Assembly (NCBI GenBank): GCA_963771275.1
Contig: CAVYSW010000010.1
Span: 780,201 to 844,200 of the forward strand
Reading direction: 5' to 3'
Source: an uncultured Gemmatimonadales bacterium
GTDB lineage: Bacteria; Gemmatimonadota; Gemmatimonadetes; Gemmatimonadales; GWC2-71-9
Length of the DNA: 64,000 nt
Part shown: positions 49,075 through 64,000 of the stretch, piece by piece
How positions within the stretch are numbered: position 1 is the first letter of the stretch
Layout: every line of letters starts with the position of its first letter
Notes under the pieces: generated by a model
The model's input: only the letters and a program-made list of their open reading frames with translations
Databases searched by the model: none
Told to the model about the DNA's origin: nothing
Position numbers and translations under genes: made by a program

Positions 49075-49273
49075 GGAGGGACCATACAAGGGGGGAGGAT
49101 CGGGCGTCCACCACATAGATCACAGCCCCACAACCGCTTTCCCTGGGGCCATCCCCCCCCCGGGCGTCACCAGGCCGCTCACCGCGTTCTTTCGATGACG
49201 ACGATCCCCCGGTCACTCCGCACGTTCCCGCATGTGCCGACTCTTGCCAACTCGGCCGAGGAGCACCCATCGT

Positions 49274-49828
49274 ATGGCCATGCCCGATACCGCACGGCGC
49301 TACACCGTCGAGGAGGTGCTCGCGTTCCCCAGCGATGGGAACCGCTACGAGCTGGTGGATGGGGAGCTGCTGGTGACGCCGGCGCCCCGGAGCCGGCATC
49401 AGCTCATCGTGGGCGAGCTGTACGGCCGCTTGTATCAGTATCTGGAGCCGCGCCGTCGTGAGGCGCGGGTTGTGCTGTCTCCGGCCGACATCCGGTGGCC
49501 GGGCGAGGTGCTGGTCCAGCCCGACGTGTTCGTGGTACCGGCGGCGGAGCTCACCGCGCAGGACTGGTCGAGTGTCCGCACGCTGCTGCTGGCGGTGGAG
49601 GTCGTTTCACCCAGCTCGTCACGCCATGACCGGGTCACGAAGCGGCAGGTGTACCAGCGGCAGCGGGTCGCCACCTACTGGGTGGTGGACCCCGACGCCC
49701 GGGTGGTGGAGGTCTGGCACCCGGACGACCAGCGCCCGGAGATCGTCACCGGCGTGCTCACGTGGCGACTGCCGGGAGCGGCTGAAGAGCTCAGGATCGA
49801 GCTCGAAGCGGTGTTCGCGGGGGTGTGA
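49274..49828 (+). CDS. Uma2 family PD-(D/E)xK endonuclease-like protein
   Basis: RYELVDGELLVTPAP..HQ, QPDVFV, LAVEVVSPSS..D...K...Y, YWVVDP. Confidence 0.92.
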   Translation: MAMPDTARRYTVEEVLAFPSDGNRYELVDGELLVTPAPRSRHQLIVGELYGRLYQYLEPRRREARVVLSPADIRWPGEVLVQPDVFVVPAAELTAQDWSSVRTLLLAVEVVSPSSSRHDRVTKRQVYQRQRVATYWVVDPDARVVEVWHPDDQRPEIVTGVLTWRLPGAAEELRIELEAVFAGV

Positions 49829-52514: not shown

Positions 52515-53049
52515 ATGGCCATGCCCGATACTGCTCGCCGCTACACCGTCGAGGAAGTGCTGGCGTTCCCGAGCGACGGGAACCGGTACGAGCTGGTGGA
52601 CGGGGAGCTGCTAGTGACGCCGGCCCCCGCCGGCACCAGCTCGTAGGCGGATCTGCATCTGCGACGGTACTGCCGGCAATCCGGTCTGGAGCCGTTCTCC
52701 CCCGCGGACATCCGGTGGCCGGGCGAGGTGCTGGTGCAGCCGGACGTGTTCGTCGTGCCGGCCGAGGAGCTCGCGGCCGCAGGACTGGTCTGGCGTTCGG
52801 ACGCTGGCCCTCGCGGTCGAGGTGGTGTCTCCCAGCTCGTCGCGCTACGACCGGGTCACCAAGCGGCGGGTCTATCAGCGGCACGGCGTGGCGACTTACT
52901 GGGTGGTGGATCCCGACGCCCGCCTGGTGGAGGTCTGGCACCCGGAGGATGACCGCCCCGAGATCGTGACGGACGTGCTGCGCTGGCGCATTCGCCCCGA
53001 CGCACCGGAGCTCGAGATCACGCTGGAGGACGTGTTTCGCGACGTGTGA
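52515..53049 (+). pseudogene. Second Uma2 paralog, frameshifted (pseudogene or assembly error)
   Basis: Start MAMPDTARRYTVEEVLAFPSDGNRYELVDGELLVTPAP is identical to 49274; frame breaks near 52630-52700 and about 52780; the C-terminus YWVVDP..HPEDDRPEIV is intact. Confidence 0.8.
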
Positions 53050-53172: not shown

Positions 53173-53519
53173 GCCCTAACCCATTGACCGAATGCCAGTT
53201 ACGCGTGTCGCAGGTTCCAGCGCTCAAGGCCCCCCATTCGCCTCCTCTCGAACATCCGCTTGGCAACGCGGCGTTCGTTAGCTAGGAACATCCTGAGACT
53301 TGGCGGGGAACAGTCAGCAGGGCTCGTCTGCCGGCGCCTCACAAACCCGACAAGTCTTGTTGTTGTGCTCTGACGGCAGCTGTCCCATACTGGCGCGTCT
53401 ACGACCTGCCGGTGGCCCTCCCAGGCCCGCCGCTCGACCGACGCCGCAGCATGACGCCCGCCCCGTGGCGTGACCTTGGGCCTTCGACGAGATCGCATCC
53501 TCCGGACCGAGGTTCCCTC

Positions 53520-55829
53520 ATGCGCAGCGGTCTCTCCCTCGGAGCAGCCACGCTATCGGTGTGTGCCCTCGCGGGCTGCTGGGACGGTGACGCACTCACC
53601 GAGCCCCTCGCTTCCCCGGCCGTACAGGCAGTCCATTGCAGGGCCGACGTCACCGTCGGAACGCTCACATGCGGATCGCCAACCGTCGACGCGGCGTCCG
53701 GGCCGCAGCTCGCGATTACGCTCGGCGGCCAGGACCTGTACGTGCGCCTCGCCTCCAGCAACGTGAGCTACGACGGCTCGGATGTGTTTCAGGCGGATGT
53801 CACCATCCGGAGCCTGATCGCTCAACCGCTGGGCACACTGGACGGGACCACGCTCACCGGGATCAAGGTGTTCTTCCACTCGGGACCCGTGGTGACGAGC
53901 GGCGATGGCTCGGTGACGGTGGCAAACGCCGATGGCACCGGGACGTTCACGGGCGTGAACCAGCCCTACTTCGAGTACAACACGATCCTCGAGCGAGGCG
54001 AGACCTCGGCGTCGAAGACGTGGCAATGGAGCGTGCCGCCGACGGTCGCGACGTTCGAGTTCTCCGTGTTGGTGAACGCGGACATCCCCCACGAGCAGGG
54101 TGTGCTCCAGTGGTCGAAAGTGCTCGGGAGTCGTCTGTGGGACGTGTGGGGCAGCTCACCGACGGATGTCTTCGCCGTGAGTGGTGATGGCGGGATTCTC
54201 CACTACGACGGTTCGGGCTGGGTCAGGCAGGCCGGCGGAAACCCGGAGCCGCTCTATGGTGTCTGGGGCAGCTCCTCGACGGACATCTTTGCCGTGGGGT
54301 CTTTCGGTACGATTCTGCGCTACAACGGCGACGACGTGGAGCACGCAGGCGAGCGGGACGACTTCACACCTCTGGGGCGTATGGGGCAGCTCCTCCACGG
54401 ACGTCTTTGCGGTGGGCGCCGGCGGCAGGATCGTGCACAACGATGGCTCGGGGTGGACCACGCAGGCCAGCGGGACAGGGTCGTCGCTGCAGGCCGTCTG
54501 GGGCAGCTCATCGACGGACGTGTTCGCGGTCGGTACGTCGTATGGCGACGATGCCTATGTGCTGCACTATAACGGATCGAGTTGGACTGCGCTGCTTTGG
54601 GGAACGGACCCGGCGGCCACGAGCCTCTACGGGGTCTGGGGCACCTCCTCGACTGACGTCTTCGCCGTCGGCTCCGCGGTGGGCTACGACGGCCTGATCT
54701 TGCACTACGACGGCTCGGGCTGGACCGCACAGGTCCTCGGGATCGGGGCGCCCACGTTCTACGCCGTCTGGGGCACCTCCTCGACCGACGTCTTCGCGCT
54801 GGGGGCCAGTGGCAGGATCTTCCACTACGACGGCACGGGCTGGAGCGAGCAGACCACCCCGACGATCTCAACGCTCTATGGTGCGTGGGGCAGCTCCTCG
54901 ACGGACGTCTTTGCCGTCGGGCACCTCGGTACTACCCTGCACTACAACGGCAGCGACGTGGAGCGCCCAGACCGGCGCGATCGCTCCATCTCTCAACAGC
55001 GTGTGGGGCAGCTCCTCCACGGACGTCTTTGCCGTAGGGTCTAGCGGCACGATCATGCACTACAACGGCACGAGGTGGAGCGGCCCGACCATCGAGACCG
55101 GTTCAGCTCTCAACGGCGTGTGGGGCAGCTCCTCCACGGACGTCTTTGCCGTGGGGGCGGGTGGCACGATCCTGCACTACAACGGCACGACGTGGGGCAC
55201 GCAGTCAAGCGGCACGACTTCAAATCTCTACGGTGTGTGGGGCAGCTCCGCCGCGGATGTCTTCGCGGTGGGTGCCGACGCCACGATCCTGCACTACGAC
55301 GGCATGAGCTGGAGCACGCAGACAAACGGGACCGGGAGCCATCTTCGGTGTCTGGGGCAGCTCCCCGACGAACGTCTTCGCGGTAGGAGTCGCGGGCTGG
55401 ATCCTGCACTACGACGGCGCGAGCTGGCATGAGGACCGAGCCAGCACGCCGGGCAGCGCCGACCACATGGCCGTGTGGGGCAGCTCCGCCACGGACGTCT
55501 TTGTCGCGGGGTTGGGCGGTGGGTTCAGGCATTACGACGGGTCGAACTGGACCGCGATGACCAACGGCACCGCCATCGACTACATGTACGCGGTGTGGGG
55601 CACCTCGTCGGCGGACGTGTATGCGGTGGGCTGTACGTACACCTCCGTTGGAAATCTGTACGAGGCCACGGTCATTCACTACAACGGCACGAGCTGGACC
55701 GAGCAACTGCGGCGGTCCACGGGGATGGACGGGACTTCCAGTTGCGACCTCCATGGAGTCTGGGGCAGCTCACCCACCCGTGTCTTTGCGGTTGGGGGCT
55801 ACGGGACGGTGTTCCACGGAACGCGGTGA
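53520..55829 (+). CDS. Lipoprotein: conserved N-terminal beta domain + 14 WGSSxxDVFAVG repeats (probable double beta-propeller); 3 frameshifts
   Basis: Lipobox LAGC; the repeats continue across ORFs 53412, 54181, 54809 and 55467, with breaks near 54330, 54952 and 55345. Confidence 0.8.
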
Positions 55830-56021
55830 GGAGGGCGATCGAGACACGCTGCCGGCGCTCGGGTGGGACTCGTCAGAGTGAGGGGGACATGCCTGTTGGG
55901 CACGTGCAACAGCAGCCTGGATCCAAGGTTCCCGCGTGGAGGTTGCGCGCCGGGCCGTCAGGGTGAAGTATTGCGAATCCGACTCCGCTAGCGATCGAGT
56001 GCCCAGCCGTTGGAGGCGACG

Positions 56022-57725
56022 ATGCAGCCTGTTGTCCGGCACCTCACGTGGACGCTCGTAGTGTGCGCCGTGCCGCTCCTCGCCAACGGTTGTTCCGACC
56101 TGCCGGTCGACACGTCCGCGCCAGCCGTGACCCCGGCGGGGCCAAGCGCGTGGCGGAACTTCGCGGTCGCGGTCACCTGTACGGCGAGCGTCGCGCAGGG
56201 CAGCCTCACCTGCAGGCAGCCCCGTCCAACCACGGGCCCCTTCGGACCCAACTTTCTGATCGTGGGTGGGCAGAATCAGTTCGTGCAGCTCGCATCCAGC
56301 GGTGTGAGCTACGACGGCAGCGACATCTTTCAGGCCAACGTGACCGTGAAGGTCCTGTTCGGGCAGCCCATGGGCACCACTGACAGCACGACACCCACGG
56401 GCGTGCGCGTGTTCTTCCACAGCGGCCCCACCACGACGAGCGGCGACGGGTCCGTCACCGTAGCCAATGCGGACGGCACCGATACGTTCACCGGCACCAA
56501 CCAGCCCTATCACCTCTACAACCAGATCCTGTTCACCAACACGACCTCCGCACCCAAGACCTGGCGGTGGCACGTCCCGAACACGGTCAACACGTTCGAC
56601 TTCGAGGTCTACGTCGAGGGCGACGTGCCGTACCCCAACGGGTGGGTGAACGTGGCCCCGAATCCAACAGCGGTGGCACCGGGGGGGCAGGCTTCGCTCG
56701 GCGCGACCGTCCTCGATGTCGTCACGCGAACACTCGGGGGCTCGGTCACGTGGTCCAGCGGGGACGACGCGATCGCGACGGTGAGCGGTACCGGACTCGT
56801 GCTGGGGGTCGCGCCGGGCGTGGTGGACATCACCGCCTCGAACGGCGGGCCGCAGGCGGATGGGTATTCGCGAGTCACCGTGATCGGCAGTGGGTTCAAC
56901 ATCGCACTGCGCCTCCAGCCGGGCGCTTCCACTCCGCCGCAGTACGTGTTGGACGCGTTCGAGATCGCCGCGGCCCGTTGGGAGACGCTGATCACGGGGG
57001 ACCTGTCGAACGTGCTCATACAGAACCAGGCCGTCAGCTGCGCGCCGGCCTTGAACGAGGTCATTGACGACCTGCTGATCTTCATGGACATCGTGCCGAT
57101 CGACGGTGCCGGCGGGATCCTGGGGCAGGCCGGCCCCTGCTACTACCGCTCGACGGGTCACCTCCCGATCACCGGCATGATGCAGTTCGACGTCGACGAC
57201 CTGGCCGCTCTCCACACATCCGGCCAGCTTGAGCAGGTGATCCTCCACGAGATGGGACACGTCCTCGGCATCGGATCGTACTGGAACGCCCTCGGCCTGC
57301 TGAACCCGAGCAATTGCAGCGCCGCGTCACCGGATCCGTACTTCAGCGGCGCGTCCGCCGTGGCCGCCTTCGATGCGGCCGGTGGGACCACCTACGTGGG
57401 CAACAAGGTGCCGGTCGAGAACACTGGCGGAGCGGGCACCGTGTGCTCGCACTGGCGCGAGAGCGTGCTGGACAACGAGCTGATGACGGGATGGCTCAAT
57501 GCGGGCACCAATCTGCTCAGCGCGATCACCGTGGAGTCGCTGGCCGACATGGGGTACACGGTGAACGCGGCCGGTGCCGATGCGTACACCCTCCCATCGG
57601 CGCCGCTGCCGGCCATACGCGCCGGGGCGATCTTCCTCAACAACGACATCCTCGTCGGCCCCGCCTACATGGTGGACGAGCAGGGCCGCGTGACGGTGAT
57701 CCAGCGGCCGTGGCTGGAACAGTGA
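56022..57725 (+). CDS. Lipoprotein: same N-terminal domain + Ig-like domain + leishmanolysin-like (M8) zinc metallopeptidase
   Basis: Lipobox ANGC; VTWSSGDDAIATVSGTGLV (Ig/Big2-like); ILGQAGPC, HEMGHVLG, SHWRE..NELMTG. Confidence 0.88.
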   Translation: MQPVVRHLTWTLVVCAVPLLANGCSDLPVDTSAPAVTPAGPSAWRNFAVAVTCTASVAQGSLTCRQPRPTTGPFGPNFLIVGGQNQFVQLASSGVSYDGSDIFQANVTVKVLFGQPMGTTDSTTPTGVRVFFHSGPTTTSGDGSVTVANADGTDTFTGTNQPYHLYNQILFTNTTSAPKTWRWHVPNTVNTFDFEVYVEGDVPYPNGWVNVAPNPTAVAPGGQASLGATVLDVVTRTLGGSVTWSSGDDAIATVSGTGLVLGVAPGVVDITASNGGPQADGYSRVTVIGSGFNIALRLQPGASTPPQYVLDAFEIAAARWETLITGDLSNVLIQNQAVSCAPALNEVIDDLLIFMDIVPIDGAGGILGQAGPCYYRSTGHLPITGMMQFDVDDLAALHTSGQLEQVILHEMGHVLGIGSYWNALGLLNPSNCSAASPDPYFSGASAVAAFDAAGGTTYVGNKVPVENTGGAGTVCSHWRESVLDNELMTGWLNAGTNLLSAITVESLADMGYTVNAAGADAYTLPSAPLPAIRAGAIFLNNDILVGPAYMVDEQGRVTVIQRPWLEQ

Positions 57726-57784
57726 GCGGCCAAACGCGGAGTGACCGATCCGACAACCAGCGCGCGCTGCGCAGGAGTCATGCG

Positions 57785-57950
57785 ATGAACACGACTAACC
57801 AGCAGTCTCCCACACCGGACGCCCCGCGCCGGCCGTGGACCCCCCCGACGGTGGAGGATCTGCCGAAGCTGACCGACCTCACGCTGCTCACGGGCAGACC
57901 CGATCGGCGGCGGCGGCGGCACCGGGGGCGGAGGCTCGTCGGTCTTCTAG
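57785..57950 (+). CDS. Putative RiPP precursor with lasso-type leader (needs removal of 1 nt at about 57896)
   Basis: AGGAG RBS; MNTTNQQSPTPDAPRRPWTPPTVEDLPKLTDLTL-LTGxPIGGGGGTGGGGSSVF*; TAG at 57948-57950 lies just before the rSAM start. Confidence 0.75.
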
Positions 57951-57953
57951 CCC

Positions 57954-58962
57954 GTGCCGATGCTCGTAGGCTTTGCCGTCACGGAGCACTGCAACCTGCG
58001 GTGCCCCCACTGCATCCGCGACGACGTGACCACCGTACGCTCGCTCGAGCCCGAGCTGATCGCCGCGGTGCTGGATCAGGCAGCGGCCCTGTTCGGGCCG
58101 GTCACGGCGAGCTTCACGGGAGGCGAGCCGCTGCTGCACGCCGAGTTCGGCCGCATCGTGGCGGACTGCGCCGCGCGTGACGTGCCGTACCGCTTCGTCA
58201 CCAACGCCTGGCACTTGAAGCGGGCCGTCCCGCTGCTGCGCCGTCATCGCCCGCAATCCGTGCGGCTGAGCCTCTCCGGGGCGAGCGAAGCCACCCATGA
58301 CGCCGAGCGCGGCCAGGGGAGCTTCCGCCGGGTCCTGCTCGGCGCGGCGCTGCTCACGAACGAGCGGATTCCCGCCTACCTGTCGATCGTGATCGACCGC
58401 CGCAACCGCCACGAGCTCCGGACCGCCGCGGACCTCGCCGAGCAGCTGGGGTGCCTCGGCATCGGGTTCATCCTGCCGCAGCCCACACCCGGCAGCGCCG
58501 CGCGGGACAGCGATCTCCCACCCGAGGATTGGCTGCCGACGGTGCGCGCGGTCCAAGCGCTCGCGGCTGAACCGGGACGACGCTCGGCGGTGACTCTGGA
58601 CTACGGCCACCCGTTCGAGGGCGCGGAAGCACCGTGCGAGACCTTCTCGCGGGCAGCGGATCTACGTCGACACCAAGGGCCGGCTCTGCACCTGCTGCCA
58701 GCTCTCCGGGTTCGGCTTCAACGAGACTGAGGTCGTCGCGGATCTGCACGACGTCTCGCTGGCCGAGGCGTACGAGCGATACGTCCAGCGGGTCGAAGCG
58801 CTGCGCCGGGCCCAGCGGCCTGGGATCGGGAGTCCGCACATCACCGATCCGTTCCCCTGCCTCCGCTGCTGCGTTGCGAGCGGGAAGCTCGAGTGGCTCT
58901 CCCGGCACCCGGGGTCGCACTGGCACCGCGCCGCGCATCGGACGATCACGTCGGCGGCGTGA
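57954..58962 (+). CDS. Radical SAM protein with Twitch/SPASM-like C-terminus (frameshift at about 58650)
   Basis: CNLRCPHC, FTGGEPLL, VTNA, HDAERG..SF; after the shift: C..RIYVDTKGRLCTCCQL...ADLHDVSLAE...FPCLRCC. Confidence 0.88.
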
Positions 58963-58980: not shown

Positions 58981-59990
58981 ATGTCGTCCCCATCCACCGT
59001 CTTCATTCGCGCGCTGCGATGGACCACGGCCGCTCTCCGTCACCGGCGCCTGGTCGGCGCCTCCGCCTTGCTGTGCGCGGTCCTGGCGACGGTCGCCACG
59101 CTCGTCTACGGTCCCGAGTACACGGCTGAGTCGTCCTACATTCCCCACATTTCGCCCTACATGTCGGGGTCCGCTCCGATCCAGTTCACCGCGCTGCTGG
59201 GTGGGGCCGGTGTTCGCATACCCTATTCCGAAGCCAGCGAACAGCCCATGTTCTATGAGGAGCTCGTGACGTCGCGCACGATCCTCACCGAGGTCGCGCG
59301 GTTCACCTATCGGTTCCCCCGCCGCCAGGACGGTACGGACAGCCTCGAAGGCAATCTCCTCGCGCTGTGGGGTACGGACGGTGACTCCGAGGAGGAGCGC
59401 CTGGCTGCCGCGCTCGATCGTCTCGAACGCATGGTGTCGGCGGACATGGACCTGAGAACCGGCATCGTCACCGTGAAGACGCGGGCCCGCTGGCCGGATC
59501 TCGCCGAGCAGATGAACCGCCGCATCCTGCAGGCGATCCAGGAGTTCATCTTCCTCAAGCGGAGCGAGCGGTACGAGGCGATGCACGCGTTTGCCGAAGG
59601 GCGGACCCAGGTGGCTGCGCGGGAGCTGTCGAGCGCGGAAGGCGCGCTGCTCGACTTCAACGTGCGCAACCGCCGGTTCGACAACTCACCCCAGCTCGAG
59701 CTGGAAGAACGGCGCCTCCGGGACGAGATGGAGCGGCAGTTGGAGTTCCACACTTCGCTGCTCCTGGCGGCGGAGGAGACGAGCGTCGAGCGGCTGCGGG
59801 ATACGCCGTTCATCACCGTGATCGACTCGCCGGAGGGTGGCGCCCACCGCACGGGCCTTCGACTGCCGCTTGCGATCCCGGTGGGGCTGCTCTTCGGCGG
59901 GCTCCTGGGGATCGCGGCCGCCGTGGTCGTGGACGCGACCACCGTGGGTCGCCACTGGTCGCCACCGATCCCCGAGATCACCAGTCATGA
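58981..59990 (+). CDS. Wzz/polysaccharide co-polymerase-like protein (end uncertain, probable frameshift)
   Basis: N-terminal TM + PEYTAES, periplasmic coiled coil, VIDSP, C-terminal Gly-rich TM (GLLFGGLLG); no tyrosine kinase domain. Confidence 0.75.
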
Positions 59991-61172
59991 GCCGACGCAT
60001 ATGGGCCATCGGTCTCGGCCAGCCTGGGGCGCGAGCCCGGAGAGTGCTCGTGGGGCCATGCTCACCGCGACCGCGGGGAGCGTGCTCGTCGCGTGCGGTG
60101 ACACCACCGCCCCTGACGCGCTCGCCATCGAGATCGCCGGCCGCCTGGAGCGCAGCTGCCGTGGTGAGCCTGAGCGCGAGCTTCGAGGGGACACTCCTGG
60201 CCGATTCCGCGGTCACCTGGACCGCCGAGCCGGCCGGTGCCGTGATATTCCTCGGAGGAGGCAGCGCCACACTCGCCCAGGCGGGGCAAGTGACCTTCAC
60301 CGCGCACGCGGCGGTCGGAACCGGCGCGCGCACCATAACGGTGGCGACGCCTCCGACCATCGTGTTCGACCTGCTGCGCGACGGCAACCGCGACATCTAT
60401 CGGGCGGCGCTCGACGGCGGGGACCTGGCGCGCCTCACGACCGATCCCGGTGACGACGGCGATCCGACGGCGGTGGGCGATCGCGTCGTCTTCGTCAGCT
60501 ATCGGGATGGGAACGGCGAGCTGTATGCGACATCGCTGAGCGGAGGGGCGCCCACGAGGCTCACGTTCACCGACGTGGCCGAAGCGGGACCGGCATTGTC
60601 TCGGGACGGCGCGTGGCTCGCCTACACCAGGAGCGATGGGGGAGTACCCAAGCTGTGGGTGTCACTGTCCAACGGCGGTGCCGCGGCCCGGGTCACCGGG
60701 AGCTTCGGGTTCCCGGGCTCGATCGAGGCCAGCCCGTCCTGGGCTCCGAGCCGGGGATCGTCTGGCCTTCGTGTCCACGTCCGAGGGAACGGCGGACCTG
60801 TTCACCTATACGGTATCCACTGGAGCGTTCGCCCCGCTCGTGCCGGACTCGGCGTCGCGCGCGGAGGTCGAGCCCGCGTGGAGTCCCGATGGCGCGTGGG
60901 TCGCGTTTGCGACCGACCGCCCGGGCGATACCGAGATCTACCTGCTCGAGGTCGCGACGGGCGAGCTGCGTCGCCTGACCAATCGTCCCGATAGCGACGG
61001 ACAGCCGACCTGGGTGCCGGACGGGCGGCTGGTGTACGTCGCCTGGACCGGGGGCGCTCCCGGCCTCCGCTGGCTCGATCCGCAGGTACCGAGCGAGATT
61101 CACGACATCGACGTCGGGCCGGGCGAGCCACGCCACCCGGCCGGCGTTCTCCCGCTACCGGCGGCCCAATGA
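59987..61172 (+). CDS. Lipoprotein with Ig-like segment and TolB/PD40 beta-propeller (frameshifted)
   Basis: Lipobox LVAC; DGNRDIY, YRDGNGELY, PSWAP, PAWSPDG, GDTEIY repeats across ORFs 58981, 59837 and 60636. Confidence 0.75.
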
Positions 61173-61447
61173 GCGACGGCGCACCCGCTCCGCGATACGC
61201 GGTCTCGAAGGACGTGCTGACGGCCCATCTCGAGGGTGAAGCCGTGTTGCTGCACCTCGAGACCAAGCAGTACTACCGCCTCAACGAAACCGCGGCGGCC
61301 ATCTGGCGGGGCCTGGAAGGCGGCCTGGATCCGGCCGACATCGTTGGGGGCCTCGTCAAGGACTTCGAGATCGACGCCGCGACCGCTGAAGCCGAGGTCG
61401 AGCGGGTGCTCGGCGATCTGCGCGAACGGGGTCTCCTCGCATCGTGA
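61169..61447 (+). CDS. PqqD-family RiPP recognition element (lasso B1-like)
   Basis: EAVLLHLETKQYYRLNETAAAIW...LVKDFEID...LRERGLL. Confidence 0.92.
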   Translation: MSDGAPAPRYAVSKDVLTAHLEGEAVLLHLETKQYYRLNETAAAIWRGLEGGLDPADIVGGLVKDFEIDAATAEAEVERVLGDLRERGLLAS

Positions 61448-61833
61448 CGAGCCGTTTGCTCGAGATGGCGATCGGGACCGGCGCCGCGCTCCGCAGTCCC
61501 CTGTGGATCACGGGCTCGCGCCTGCAACGGCTGCTGCAGGACACCCCCGGCGTCTCGCGGGGCTCCCGTCATCCCGAGACGGCGACGCGAGCTTCCCTGC
61601 TCGCCCTGAGGGCGCTCGCGCGCCTTCCCCTGCTCCCGTGGCGGAATACGTGCCTCTACCGCAGCGTCGCCGAGTGTCTCGTGCTGCGGAGCTGCGGGAT
61701 CGGCTGCCGGCTGCAACTCGGCGTGTCGCACGACGCCGCGTCGGGTGACGGGATCGTGGCCCACGCGTGGGTGGAGCGCAGTGACCGAGAGCAGGCCGAT
61801 CACCCTCACGTCCTGCTGCGCCCTGGTTCGTGA
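61444..61833 (+). CDS. Lasso B2-type transglutaminase-like leader peptidase
   Basis: TCLYRS ... LQLGV ... AHAWVE (catalytic Cys/His). Confidence 0.9.
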   Translation: MTSRLLEMAIGTGAALRSPLWITGSRLQRLLQDTPGVSRGSRHPETATRASLLALRALARLPLLPWRNTCLYRSVAECLVLRSCGIGCRLQLGVSHDAASGDGIVAHAWVERSDREQADHPHVLLRPGS

Positions 61834-62796
61834 GCATTCGTGGAGACGACGGGCAGATCGCGCACGCGTTGCTGGCAGATCAATCGCTCGTGCTGCGGTC
61901 GGACCCCCGCTGCTGGCCCCTCGTCCAGTCCGTGGGTGCCGCTGAGCTGCGATCCGGCAGAAGGGACGCAGCACCTCGCGCCGTCGTGGCGGTCGAGCCC
62001 CTGCAGTCCCCAGCACCGCCATCCCGAGAGGCTGGGCGACCCACCCTCACGGTTGGGCCCGTCGGTGCTTGGCTCGAACCCGGTGCGGCCAGCGCGGCGT
62101 TGCAGGGGGTTACCGGCAGCTGGGGCCGGCTCGACCTCACCACGCTGCACGCCACGCTGCGGGCGGACCTCGCTGCGGGCGAGGCAGCCGGTGCCGACCT
62201 CTACGCCATGCTCACCATCGCGTCGGCGCTGCTGCTCGGCCGAATGAGACGGCCGTTGATCCATGCCGGAGCGGTCGTGGCACCCGACGGGAGGGGCTGG
62301 CTCGTCGTGGGCGATGCGCGGTCGGGCAAGTCCACGACGTGCGTGAGCCTCGCGAGCGCCGGCTGGGGACTGCTGTCGGACGACCAGGTGGTGCTCACGC
62401 CGAACGGGCCCACGCTCGAAGTCGAGGGCTGGCTGCGACCCGTGCATCTCGACGAGGGTTGGCGTGACGGGATGCCGCGGGGCCGCCGCCGGACGGTGCA
62501 TCCCTCCGAGCTGGCCGCCGGTGCGCCGTGCCGCGTCGTGCCGCTGGCCGGCACCGTGCACACGTCGGTCGATGCCAGACCAACCGACGCACGTCTCCAA
62601 GATGGCAGCGGGCGATGCGTTCACGGGGCTGGTCCGCCAGTCCCCGTGGCTGCTGGCCGACCGCGTGGTGGCACCGTCATTGGCCGACATCTTGTCGGCC
62701 GTCGCCCGGCTGCCGCGGTTCTCCCTGCGATTGGGACTGGACACGTTCGGCAGGCCGGACCGGCTGCGAGCGCTGCTTACGCCGGCGCTGTTTTAG
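61830..62796 (+). CDS. HPr kinase-like peptide kinase (frameshift at about 62577)
   Basis: LIHAGAVV, GDARSGKSTT (Walker A), LLSDD; the C-terminus continues in ORF 62464..62796. Confidence 0.85.
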
Positions 62797-63945
62797 GCCG
62801 CGCCTTCGTCGCACGGGCCGCGGCATGAGGTCGCCAGCAAGGCGAGCGGCGCAGCCAGGACCGTGGCGAACACTACTCGCATCACCCGGCTCGTGACCCG
62901 CACGCCCCGGCCGAGTCGCGGCGCCCGCCGCTCGATCCACGCGATGGAACGGGACGACGACGGACCTGTGGTCACCATCCGCACCCTGCCCCACTCTCTG
63001 CGCATGTCGGCCCGGCCGGCGATGAGCGCAACCGCCCACTTGCCGACATCGGCGCGGATCACTTCGGGCAGGGGCAGCCACCTGCCGCGCCAGCTGACGT
63101 AGTACGCAACGGCGGCCTGATACACAAATCGGTCCTCGAACGATGCGGTGCCCGCGAACCCTCGGGCCATGGACAGCATGTCCTGGAGCGTGTGCGCGTA
63201 CGGATGAGTCTCGAGTGCCGCCGTGACATCTGCTCAGCTCGTCGTCGCTGCACCGCGTCAGCGCCTGGCTGAGGAGTAGCAAGTCCCGGATCGCTCCCCG
63301 CCGGTACGGGTGCAGCACGCCGACGTGTACGAGGAGGTGCCAGAGATGGTCCCGCGGAGCGAGACCGCGGAGATGCTTGGTCCCGGCCAGCGGGGTCACC
63401 CGGCTCCAGACCGACTCGGCCCACTCGCAGCCCACCATGTCGATGCTGGCGTGGACTTCGACCTTGAGCCCTCCATCGGCGATTCTCCCCTCGAGGTGCG
63501 AGGGGCTGCTGGCCCCGGCAGCGCGGTAGCCGGCCGAGTCGAGCGCCGCGGCAAGTGCCCGGGCGTCCTGCGGCGTCGCCAAGACGTCGAGATCGGTCAA
63601 GTCCGCGGCGTCTCGGTCGGTGAGCGCCGCAACACCACCCTTGAGCACCACGATGTTCCACCCGTGCTCCTCCCCCAGCCGATCGATCAAGAAGAGCTGC
63701 GCCCGAGCACTGAGCACCCGCTGCAGCTCGGCCCGAGCGGCGTCGTCGAGCTCATGCTTCGGTTCCCGCTCGAGCAGTGCGTACTGACTGCCCGCAACGA
63801 GGCGGGCCTTGAGCGGCAACGCACATCGCTCGGCCCGGAGGAAGAAGTGCCAGGAGGCGGGCGAGCACGCAGGTGGCGCACCGGGGCCGAGCGCCAGCGT
63901 CCGGAGCGCCCAGGCCCGCAGCTCAAGGACTTCACTGATCTTCAT
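62793..63945 (-). CDS. Nucleotidyltransferase (NTP_transf_5-like; frameshift at about 63225)
   Basis: VVLKGG, DLTDLDVL, VEVH, HLLVH..H, RDLLLL; the C-terminus is in ORF 62793..63179; convergent with the kinase. Confidence 0.82.
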
Positions 63946-64000
63946 TCCGTCACCATGTGGCATAGTATCGAAGTCCCACGGCGCGTCGGGCAAGGGCTCC

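Follow-up and report, generated by a model that had tools for sequence, protein, structure and literature searches.

Lasso peptides require a ring of 7–9 residues that is closed to an Asp or Glu (PMC8498205). A cyclase-less arrangement is represented by the LPP system, whose cluster combines an RRE, an HprK-like kinase and an NTP transferase, and in which the kinase LppK polyphosphorylates the core residue S3 (PMC13381572). The radical SAM (rSAM) enzyme EpeE epimerises Val and Ile by means of one auxiliary cluster and a free Cys223 that serves as the H donor (PMC13012085, PMC5682303, PMC8326336). Furthermore, RRE-Finder yielded about 300 lasso-type RREs beside rSAM enzymes, which were regarded as uncharacterised false positives (PMC7470986).

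The gene studied here belongs to a so far uncharacterised RiPP cassette of Gemmatimonadota, which is cyclase-less and includes a radical SAM enzyme, and encodes its precursor. The precursor is conserved, and its product is probably a linear, modified 20-mer that is made together with a lipoprotein family of the same phylum.

The precursor, its family and its cassette

The window, i.e. the whole 64,000-nucleotide stretch that was analysed, is the final 64 kb of contig C10 of an assembly of 3.86 Mb in 11 contigs, and all features given here lie on its forward strand unless stated otherwise. The precursor gene occupies positions 57785..57950 and encodes 54 residues when a break is read through; its ATG lies 7 nt downstream of a Shine–Dalgarno-like AGGAG (57773..57777). 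The residues W18, P21, V23, P27, T30, T33 and L34 are read in the frame of the ATG at 57785, and the Gly-rich tail with the stop codon TAG (57948–57950) lies one frame over from this leader. Removal of one base restores the 54 residues, with residue 38 being D, N, S or R. The sequence-only reading had proposed that one extra base breaks a 54-aa precursor and had named the same four residues according to the choice of the spurious base; in-silico removal reproduces the four, and the break itself is corroborated by an intact second copy on contig C8 of the same assembly (L020:2207–2389, 95% nucleotide identity over the precursor and rSAM genes). This copy differs from the window precursor by exactly one base in length, at 57895, and reads Gly-Asp across the point of the extra base (57895..57896). 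In addition, the relatives' contigs X1, X3 and X6, from three studies, bridge the site and are each one base shorter at 57896–57898; a bridging piece comes from three of eight sequencing runs, with none listed for X2, X4, X5, X7 and X14. Since both the C8 copy and these contigs are without it, the extra base is most likely spurious, as had been supposed.

The leader W18-x2-P21-x-V23-x3-P27-x5-T33-L34 (57836..57886) contains the predicted RRE-binding part and ends in the putative B2 cleavage site after L34, which is placed from spacing. The presumed 20-aa core (57887..57947) comprises an invariant Thr/Ser at position 2, an invariant Ile at position 6, a Gly tract and an [ST][ST]VF end, and the count of 10 Gly, with Gly at positions 7–9, agrees with the half-glycine core first described.

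The bare spacing motif is weak, as the genome contains 16 matches when all six reading frames are counted, or 0.27 per 64 kb, and the precursor is taken as real because of its homologues and gene context, not because of motif spacing alone. A profile built from 13 intact copies retrieved, from 8000 candidates that were scored, 922 clusters of 27–112 aa with an E of at most 0.01. A pattern-based scan of genome contigs gave at least 10 close loci. Named records of the family are from Gemmatimonadota, and no Pfam domain is present in the 120 members listed of the 922 clusters; together with 80 fused clusters, discussed below, they form an unannotated RiPP family in an almost uncultured phylum. 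Conservation was assessed in the best 120 of the 922, which are the closest matches and thus overstate it, one of them being left out of the motif counts. In the remaining 119, W, P+3, L+8, P+9, L+11, T+12, L+14, T+15, L+16 and the core Ile-6 are invariant, and the lasso-type leader motif (W, P+3, [VLI]+5 and T+15, with Thr at −2 of the presumed cut) is present in 119/119. The assignments of W18, P21, V23 and T33 as leader residues, and of Pro as the replacement of Gly at +9, are thereby upheld. The core ends in STVF in 113 of these best 119 members; Phe is the final residue in 117 and the penultimate one in the other two, and Cys is absent from all 119 main-type cores. Core position 2 is Ser or Thr in all 120 free members and all 86 longer motif-bearing proteins (206/206), and Ile or Val occurs at core positions 4–6 in 205/206. 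An acid at core positions 7–9, for which the aligned cores of the many homologues were inspected, is found in only 18/119 relatives. Among 301 genomes of the phylum, apparently the same sample for each count and including kin that are not independent, a strong precursor match was found in 23, the rSAM enzyme in 25 and both in 22.

The precursor is followed by the gene for the rSAM enzyme (57954..58962, frameshift at 58651), which has 335 aa in the C8 copy and a C-terminal C228...C247C248...C302xxC305 pattern. Downstream of it lie an accessory Wzz/KpsE-like protein (58981..59900, end approximate), among the loci present only here and at L035, and a frameshifted TolB-like PD40 lipoprotein (60010..61172, start approximate). 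Next come an intact discrete RRE of the PqqD family (61169..61447; PF05402, E 2e-20), an intact lasso-type B2 leader protease (61444..61833; NF033537, 54.7 bits, cut-off 33) and an HprK-like kinase (61830..62796, frameshift about 62574). An NTP_transf_5 nucleotidyltransferase (62793..63993; PF14907, E 5e-16; frameshift about 63234) is convergent on the reverse strand. The order precursor, rSAM, variable lipoproteins, TolB-like lipoprotein, RRE, B2, HprK-like kinase and convergent NTP_transf_5 recurs across loci, and this context, the 922 homologue clusters and the conserved leader substantiate the earlier view of a real RiPP precursor. After 40 distinct free precursors the next gene encodes the rSAM enzyme in 23 cases, a LipoN lipoprotein (see below) in 14 and the RRE in one, and is unassigned in two. 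B2, the gene between RRE and kinase, has invariant Cys70 and His107 (6/6); it is missing at L022, L025, L034 and L175, with a B2-family gene elsewhere in those genomes. The His, GKST and SDD elements of the kinase are invariant (5/5), and the His, Lys, Asp and Asp residues named for lasso kinases are kept (PMC9266682).

No cyclase was found in the cluster ORFs scanned (73 of 146 candidates, and 32 of 73 in a second set), and tblastn with the genome's own asparagine-synthase ORF found none on 22 loci. Of five cassette genomes searched for PF00733, three, G373, G063 and G031 (97–99% complete), contain no full-length gene of this family; PF00733 or asparagine-synthase-family genes occur elsewhere in G077, G087 and the present genome. 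The same ORF scans (73/146 and 32/73 candidates) gave no SpI-type leader peptidase and no MsbA-like transporter.

Several loci show variants of the cassette. At L025:8773–9549, in the single-contig genome G077, a truncated rSAM gene forms an in-frame fusion with the end of the gene for the TolB-like protein, and B2 is absent, as in a decaying cassette. A divergent sister clade of rSAM enzymes with the same Cys pattern is found at L168, L169 and L170; at the first two the precursor keeps the leader spacing, but has an unrelated 38-residue core. Sister precursors with an FxxP leader and an x-Ser-Gly-rich core lie beside a kinase and an RRE at L145, L147, L148, L160 and L161; with no rSAM gene in the stretches fetched, these are closer to a plain LPP-like cassette. 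In the Longimicrobium records L044, L045, L047 and L051 the precursor core has two Cys, which may form a disulfide loop. An additional precursor, whose leader has the canonical Gly+9 and whose core is 6 residues long, is encoded at L044 and L045, and tandem YadA-head/Peptidase_S74 proteins are located inside the cassette at L044:12739–16443 and L047:12654–13688. Within the present assembly, contig C8 contains a second whole cassette (L020:1–7340) that is 80–95% identical in nucleotides to the window and lacks the Wzz-like gene; it adjoins heavily frameshifted rfb (dTDP-rhamnose) genes and may be a paralogue or derive from a co-binned relative. A third, more distant PqqD/RRE gene lies at the end of contig C11 (141572–141724), with no B2 match nearby. 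Two similar small genes (49232–49828 and 52728–53049, the second frameshifted), which border the cluster region on its left side in the window, resemble those of Uma2 endonucleases.

Proposed maturation and the radical SAM enzyme

Binding of the WxxPxV leader by the RRE is predicted from a model of the complex, which the sequence-only reading had suggested building and which passes: the ipSAE is 0.78 compared to 0.00 for the best of three controls, no less than 98% of the contacts are shared between runs, and the interface lies on the W/P/V stretch, with a partner pLDDT of 61–62. The pass mark was reached by 116/157 solved and 2/215 mismatched pairs, and as solved lasso RRE–leader complexes exist, the pass may reflect likeness to them. 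In the maturation pathway proposed here, the kinase likely phosphorylates Thr36 at core position 2, the nucleotidyltransferase likely decorates this phosphate by glycosylation or nucleotidylation, a residue of the core is likely changed by the rSAM enzyme, and cleavage by B2 likely takes place after T33-L34. Lasso kinases target a C-terminal Ser, which is absent from this peptide. The SSVF tail, initially noted among possible kinase targets, is unsupported as the prime kinase site: it is internal in the 80 fusions and variable in distant members, whereas Ser/Thr at position 2 is invariant. Thr36 is the inferred kinase site because of this invariance and the precedent of S3 in LPP; LppK did not accept S3T (PMC13381572), whereas Thr is the usual residue in the free members here. 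LppN was inactive in the LPP study (PMC13381572), and a precedent for the nucleotidyltransferase is found in pseudomycoidin (PMC8498205). The cassette also offers a compact, testable system for the roles of HprK-like kinases and NTP_transf_5 enzymes in RiPP clusters.

The rSAM family, of uncharacterised chemistry, comprises 166 clusters at 50% identity (E up to 1e-30). The modelled enzyme (pLDDT 82.9, region 250–254 of low confidence) has a SPASM/twitch-type fold, with SuiB as the best match (Z 22.8, rmsd 3.6, 294 aligned), followed by BlsE (21.6), SkfB (21.3) and PqqE (20.9); the match to EpeE is lower than that to SuiB (Z 16.2, rmsd 4.2, 265 aligned). The enzyme scores below every NCBIfam family cut-off, the YydG model TIGR04078 giving 16 bits, over the N-terminal motif only, compared to a cut-off of 300. 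Orthology to EpeE was considered and is unsupported by the NCBIfam models and by PDB sequence searches. In 110 full-length distant homologues (median 29% identity) the five C-terminal Cys are kept in 108, 106, 98, 107 and 105, i.e. four at 95–98% and the adjacent fifth at 89%.

The reaction is not readable from sequence or fold. Epimerisation of Ile/Val with the putatively spare Cys248 is tentatively put forward as the single best guess, because Ile/Val are the invariant hydrophobic residues of the core and this Cys may correspond to the free one of EpeE. The donor Cys223 of EpeE follows a ligand Cys in the C...CC...CxxC pattern. It is also quite possible that in the same cassette the enzyme forms a crosslink or an oxidised residue, for example at the terminal Phe or at Ser/Thr, instead of a D-residue. 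The closest folds, SuiB, BlsE, SkfB and PqqE, are those of crosslinking or oxidising SPASM/twitch enzymes, the Phe is last or next-to-last in all 119 cores, and the Gly tract could permit a loop. However, distant members with rSAM enzymes 55–60% identical end in VIP or VCP and have no Phe, thioethers are ruled out in the 119 Cys-free main-type cores, and such chemistry leaves the fifth Cys unexplained. Mycofactocin ends in VY, to be compared with VF here. A mycofactocin-like C-terminal decarboxylation is nevertheless disfavoured, as the fused forms have no free C-terminus and other members end in VIP or VCP. A reaction other than epimerisation, crosslinking or oxidation is somewhat unlikely.

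Linkage to lipoproteins

Upstream of the precursor, the window encodes a LipoN lipoprotein (56010..57725) consisting of the N-domain, Big_2 and Peptidase_M8, where LipoN is a label coined here for the unnamed N-domain of the partner lipoprotein family. A second LipoN lipoprotein (53412..55829), frameshifted and with propeller-type repeats, belongs to the family of the fused lipoproteins. The domain has no Pfam or Atlas family, its nearest models being Gemmatimonadota hypotheticals (TM 0.72–0.78). With a length of ~170 aa, it stands at the front of lipoproteins whose C-terminal parts differ (propeller, M8 peptidase, PD40), reaches up to 11 copies per genome and is possibly a sorting or partner-binding domain. 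LipoN occurs in 22/25 genomes with the rSAM enzyme compared to 8 of the other 276 in the 301-genome sample, kin again not being independent.

The phylum search also placed precursor matches inside frames of 800–900 codons. Tandem genes starting with the full leader and core number four in G373 and three in G063, and in all of them the STVF end continues in frame into a hydrophobic stretch, a lipobox-type Cys and the LipoN N-domain. The four fused lipoproteins of G373 occupy the place of the precursor before the rSAM, TolB, RRE, B2, kinase and nucleotidyltransferase genes, and the locus has no free precursor. A search for longer proteins gave 89 matches, 80 of which have leader, core and downstream Cys (68 of those with at least 750 aa, and 71 of the 80 with a stricter lipobox pattern), and conservation in the fused forms stops at the Phe where free peptides terminate. 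The precursor family is tied to LipoN lipoproteins, and one lineage group has it fused to the signal peptides of lipoproteins. In a quick rSAM tree of 34 rows the fused genome falls in an open fork, and the order of free and fused forms is not recoverable from it. Read-through of the stop codon from a free precursor into the downstream lipoprotein was rejected, since frames and spacers vary.

A segment before the h-region stays in the cytoplasm and leaves with the signal peptide after Lgt and LspA. There would be two routes to the peptide: it would be made free, from a gene immediately upstream of that for the lipoprotein, or be part of the lipoprotein's signal peptide, of which it would form the N-region. 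In the second case the core would be exposed to the cytoplasm and modified on that side, and would still be attached to the signal peptide when LspA releases the latter. What results may be a signal, either membrane-tethered or intracellular, that is linked to the production of lipoproteins, and the mature lipoprotein would not display it. RiPP tailoring would be linked to protein export by signal peptides whose N-region is an entire RiPP leader and core. Taken further, it can be speculated, at some distance from what we consider likely, that in Gemmatimonadota the lasso leader machinery has taken on the task of editing the organisms' own lipoprotein signal peptides. An RRE-guided kinase, nucleotidyltransferase, rSAM enzyme and B2 would modify and trim an N-region tag, which gates export or leaves a membrane-anchored phosphopeptide as a signal or glycan primer, with the free copies being the same tag supplied apart.

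It is unlikely that the enzymes serve mainly to control the lipoproteins as an export gate, in which Sec targeting would be switched or timed when the N-terminal extension is bound by the RRE, phosphorylated and cleaved by B2, the free peptides acting in trans or by titration. Such a role fits with Lys/Arg being absent between the presumed cut and the lipobox Cys in all 80 fused proteins (0/80), which confines the N-region's basic residues to the leader that would be removed. Furthermore, 14/40 free copies directly precede a gene for a LipoN lipoprotein, with an overlap at the start of the latter (TGATG) in two cases, and no conserved exporter was seen across the cassette loci. However, most LipoN lipoproteins, including both in the window, have an ordinary signal peptide and no leader, 23/40 free copies precede the rSAM gene instead, and LipoN occurs without the rSAM enzyme in 8 genomes. 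A modified linear peptide produced along with the lipoproteins is the more probable reading.

Possible cluster decay, the rejected lasso reading and relation to described systems

Besides the precursor, the rSAM, TolB-like, kinase and nucleotidyltransferase genes and one lipoprotein gene of the window cluster are frameshifted. This copy could be a decaying pseudogene cluster in which the extra base is real, the working form being that of C8 or of other genomes. Consistent with this are the frameshifts in no fewer than five genes of the cluster within the last 11 kb, compared to 0/15 housekeeping genes, the second cassette copy in the assembly and the truncated rSAM–TolB fusion of G077. We consider this improbable. 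Over 456 codons compared with C8 there is no in-frame stop, synonymous differences (31) exceed non-synonymous ones (17), and the RRE and B2 proteins are identical in sequence. Frameshift calls from a codon-model scan, which overlooks the known breaks at 57895 and 62574, are raised also in the first 11 kb of C10, an end unrelated to the cluster (11 calls, compared to 6 in the final 11 kb), and in the rfb genes of C8 (5 on this contig); the 30 interior samples of 11 kb have 18 calls between them. The frameshifts probably stem from poor consensus at the ends of contigs, and the reading of the precursor family is independent of this question.

The leader motif, the RRE (B1) and B2 are those of a lasso cluster, and Gly occupies core positions 7–9 in place of the Asp/Glu of a lasso. 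A lasso peptide is rejected because a 7–9-residue ring to Asp/Glu is needed, the ring acid is not conserved (18/119) and a macrolactam cyclase was not found in the cluster ORFs scanned; the sequence-only reading had placed Gly at core positions 7–9, and the relatives bear out that the core has no conserved ring-forming acid. The sequence-only reading had allowed a lasso variant in which T30 is the −2 residue and a ring of seven residues is closed at Asp38; this variant, which would need a cyclase in trans, is extremely improbable: it is in keeping with the Asp at the break position of the C8 copy, the lasso type of RRE and B2 and the asparagine-synthase-family genes elsewhere in this genome, but an acid at core 7–9 is present in only 14/119 relatives in this register, 26/119 cores are free of any acid, full-length PF00733 genes are absent from G373, G063 and G031, and a fused core with 780 following residues could not thread. 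Mined 'lasso' cluster counts for Gemmatimonadota (PMC11316326) may include such cyclase-less cassettes.

In the open-access articles searched, no description of the cassette or of the leader-core/signal-peptide layout was found, and passages of PMC8692599, PMC11316326 and 10.1101/2023.03.08.531785 do not describe it. SynChlorMet (TIGR04248–04251) provides the best NCBIfam match of the rSAM enzyme (ScmF), with weak matches to ScmD (RRE) and ScmC (kinase), yet these are far under the cut-offs (67 compared to 400, 26 compared to 100 and 21 compared to 125 bits, respectively), and none of the ScmC/D/E/F models exceeds its cut-off for the cassette proteins. DAG-RiPPs likewise join a RiPP to the lipoprotein pathway via a signal peptide and a lipobox Cys, but in mirror image: there the modified core follows the lipidated Cys and MNIO enzymes act (PMC13056109), whereas here, in the 80 fusions, the core precedes the h-region and Cys and an rSAM enzyme and kinase are present.

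EpeE/YydG resembles the present rSAM enzyme in being a stand-alone protein of ~320–335 aa, for which a single auxiliary cluster is predicted and a Cys may be left spare, and its Ile/Val targets correspond to the invariant hydrophobic core residues here (PMC13012085, PMC5682303). The two differ in sequence (14% identity), in fold score (Z 16.2 compared to 22.8 for the best fold) and in the TIGR04078 score, which stays under its cut-off here. Epipeptide clusters are not known to contain an RRE, B2 or kinase.

The phosphorylated lassos paeninodin and pseudomycoidin share with the cassette the WxxP leader, split B1/B2, a kinase with His-Lys-Asp-Asp and a nucleotidyltransferase (PMC9266682, PMC8498205); here, however, there is no cyclase, no conserved ring acid and no C-terminal Ser, the peptide ending in Phe, and an rSAM enzyme is present. 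The LPP cluster of Bacillota (lppA-K-B-S-D-N) likewise has no cyclase and combines an RRE of the discrete type, an HprK-like kinase and an NTP transferase with a [Y/W]xxP leader and a conserved Ser near the core N-terminus, some of its loci lying near polysaccharide genes (PMC13381572). It differs in having an SpI peptidase in place of the B2 cysteine protease and an MsbA-like pump, which was not seen here; radical SAM, rSAM, lipoprotein and Gemmatimonad are all unmentioned in the main text of that paper. The present cassette is set apart from it by the rSAM enzyme, another leader consensus, a short, Gly-rich, conserved core and a lipoprotein partner with fusion. The cassette would work like the LPP and paeninodin-type clusters, yet is a member of neither.
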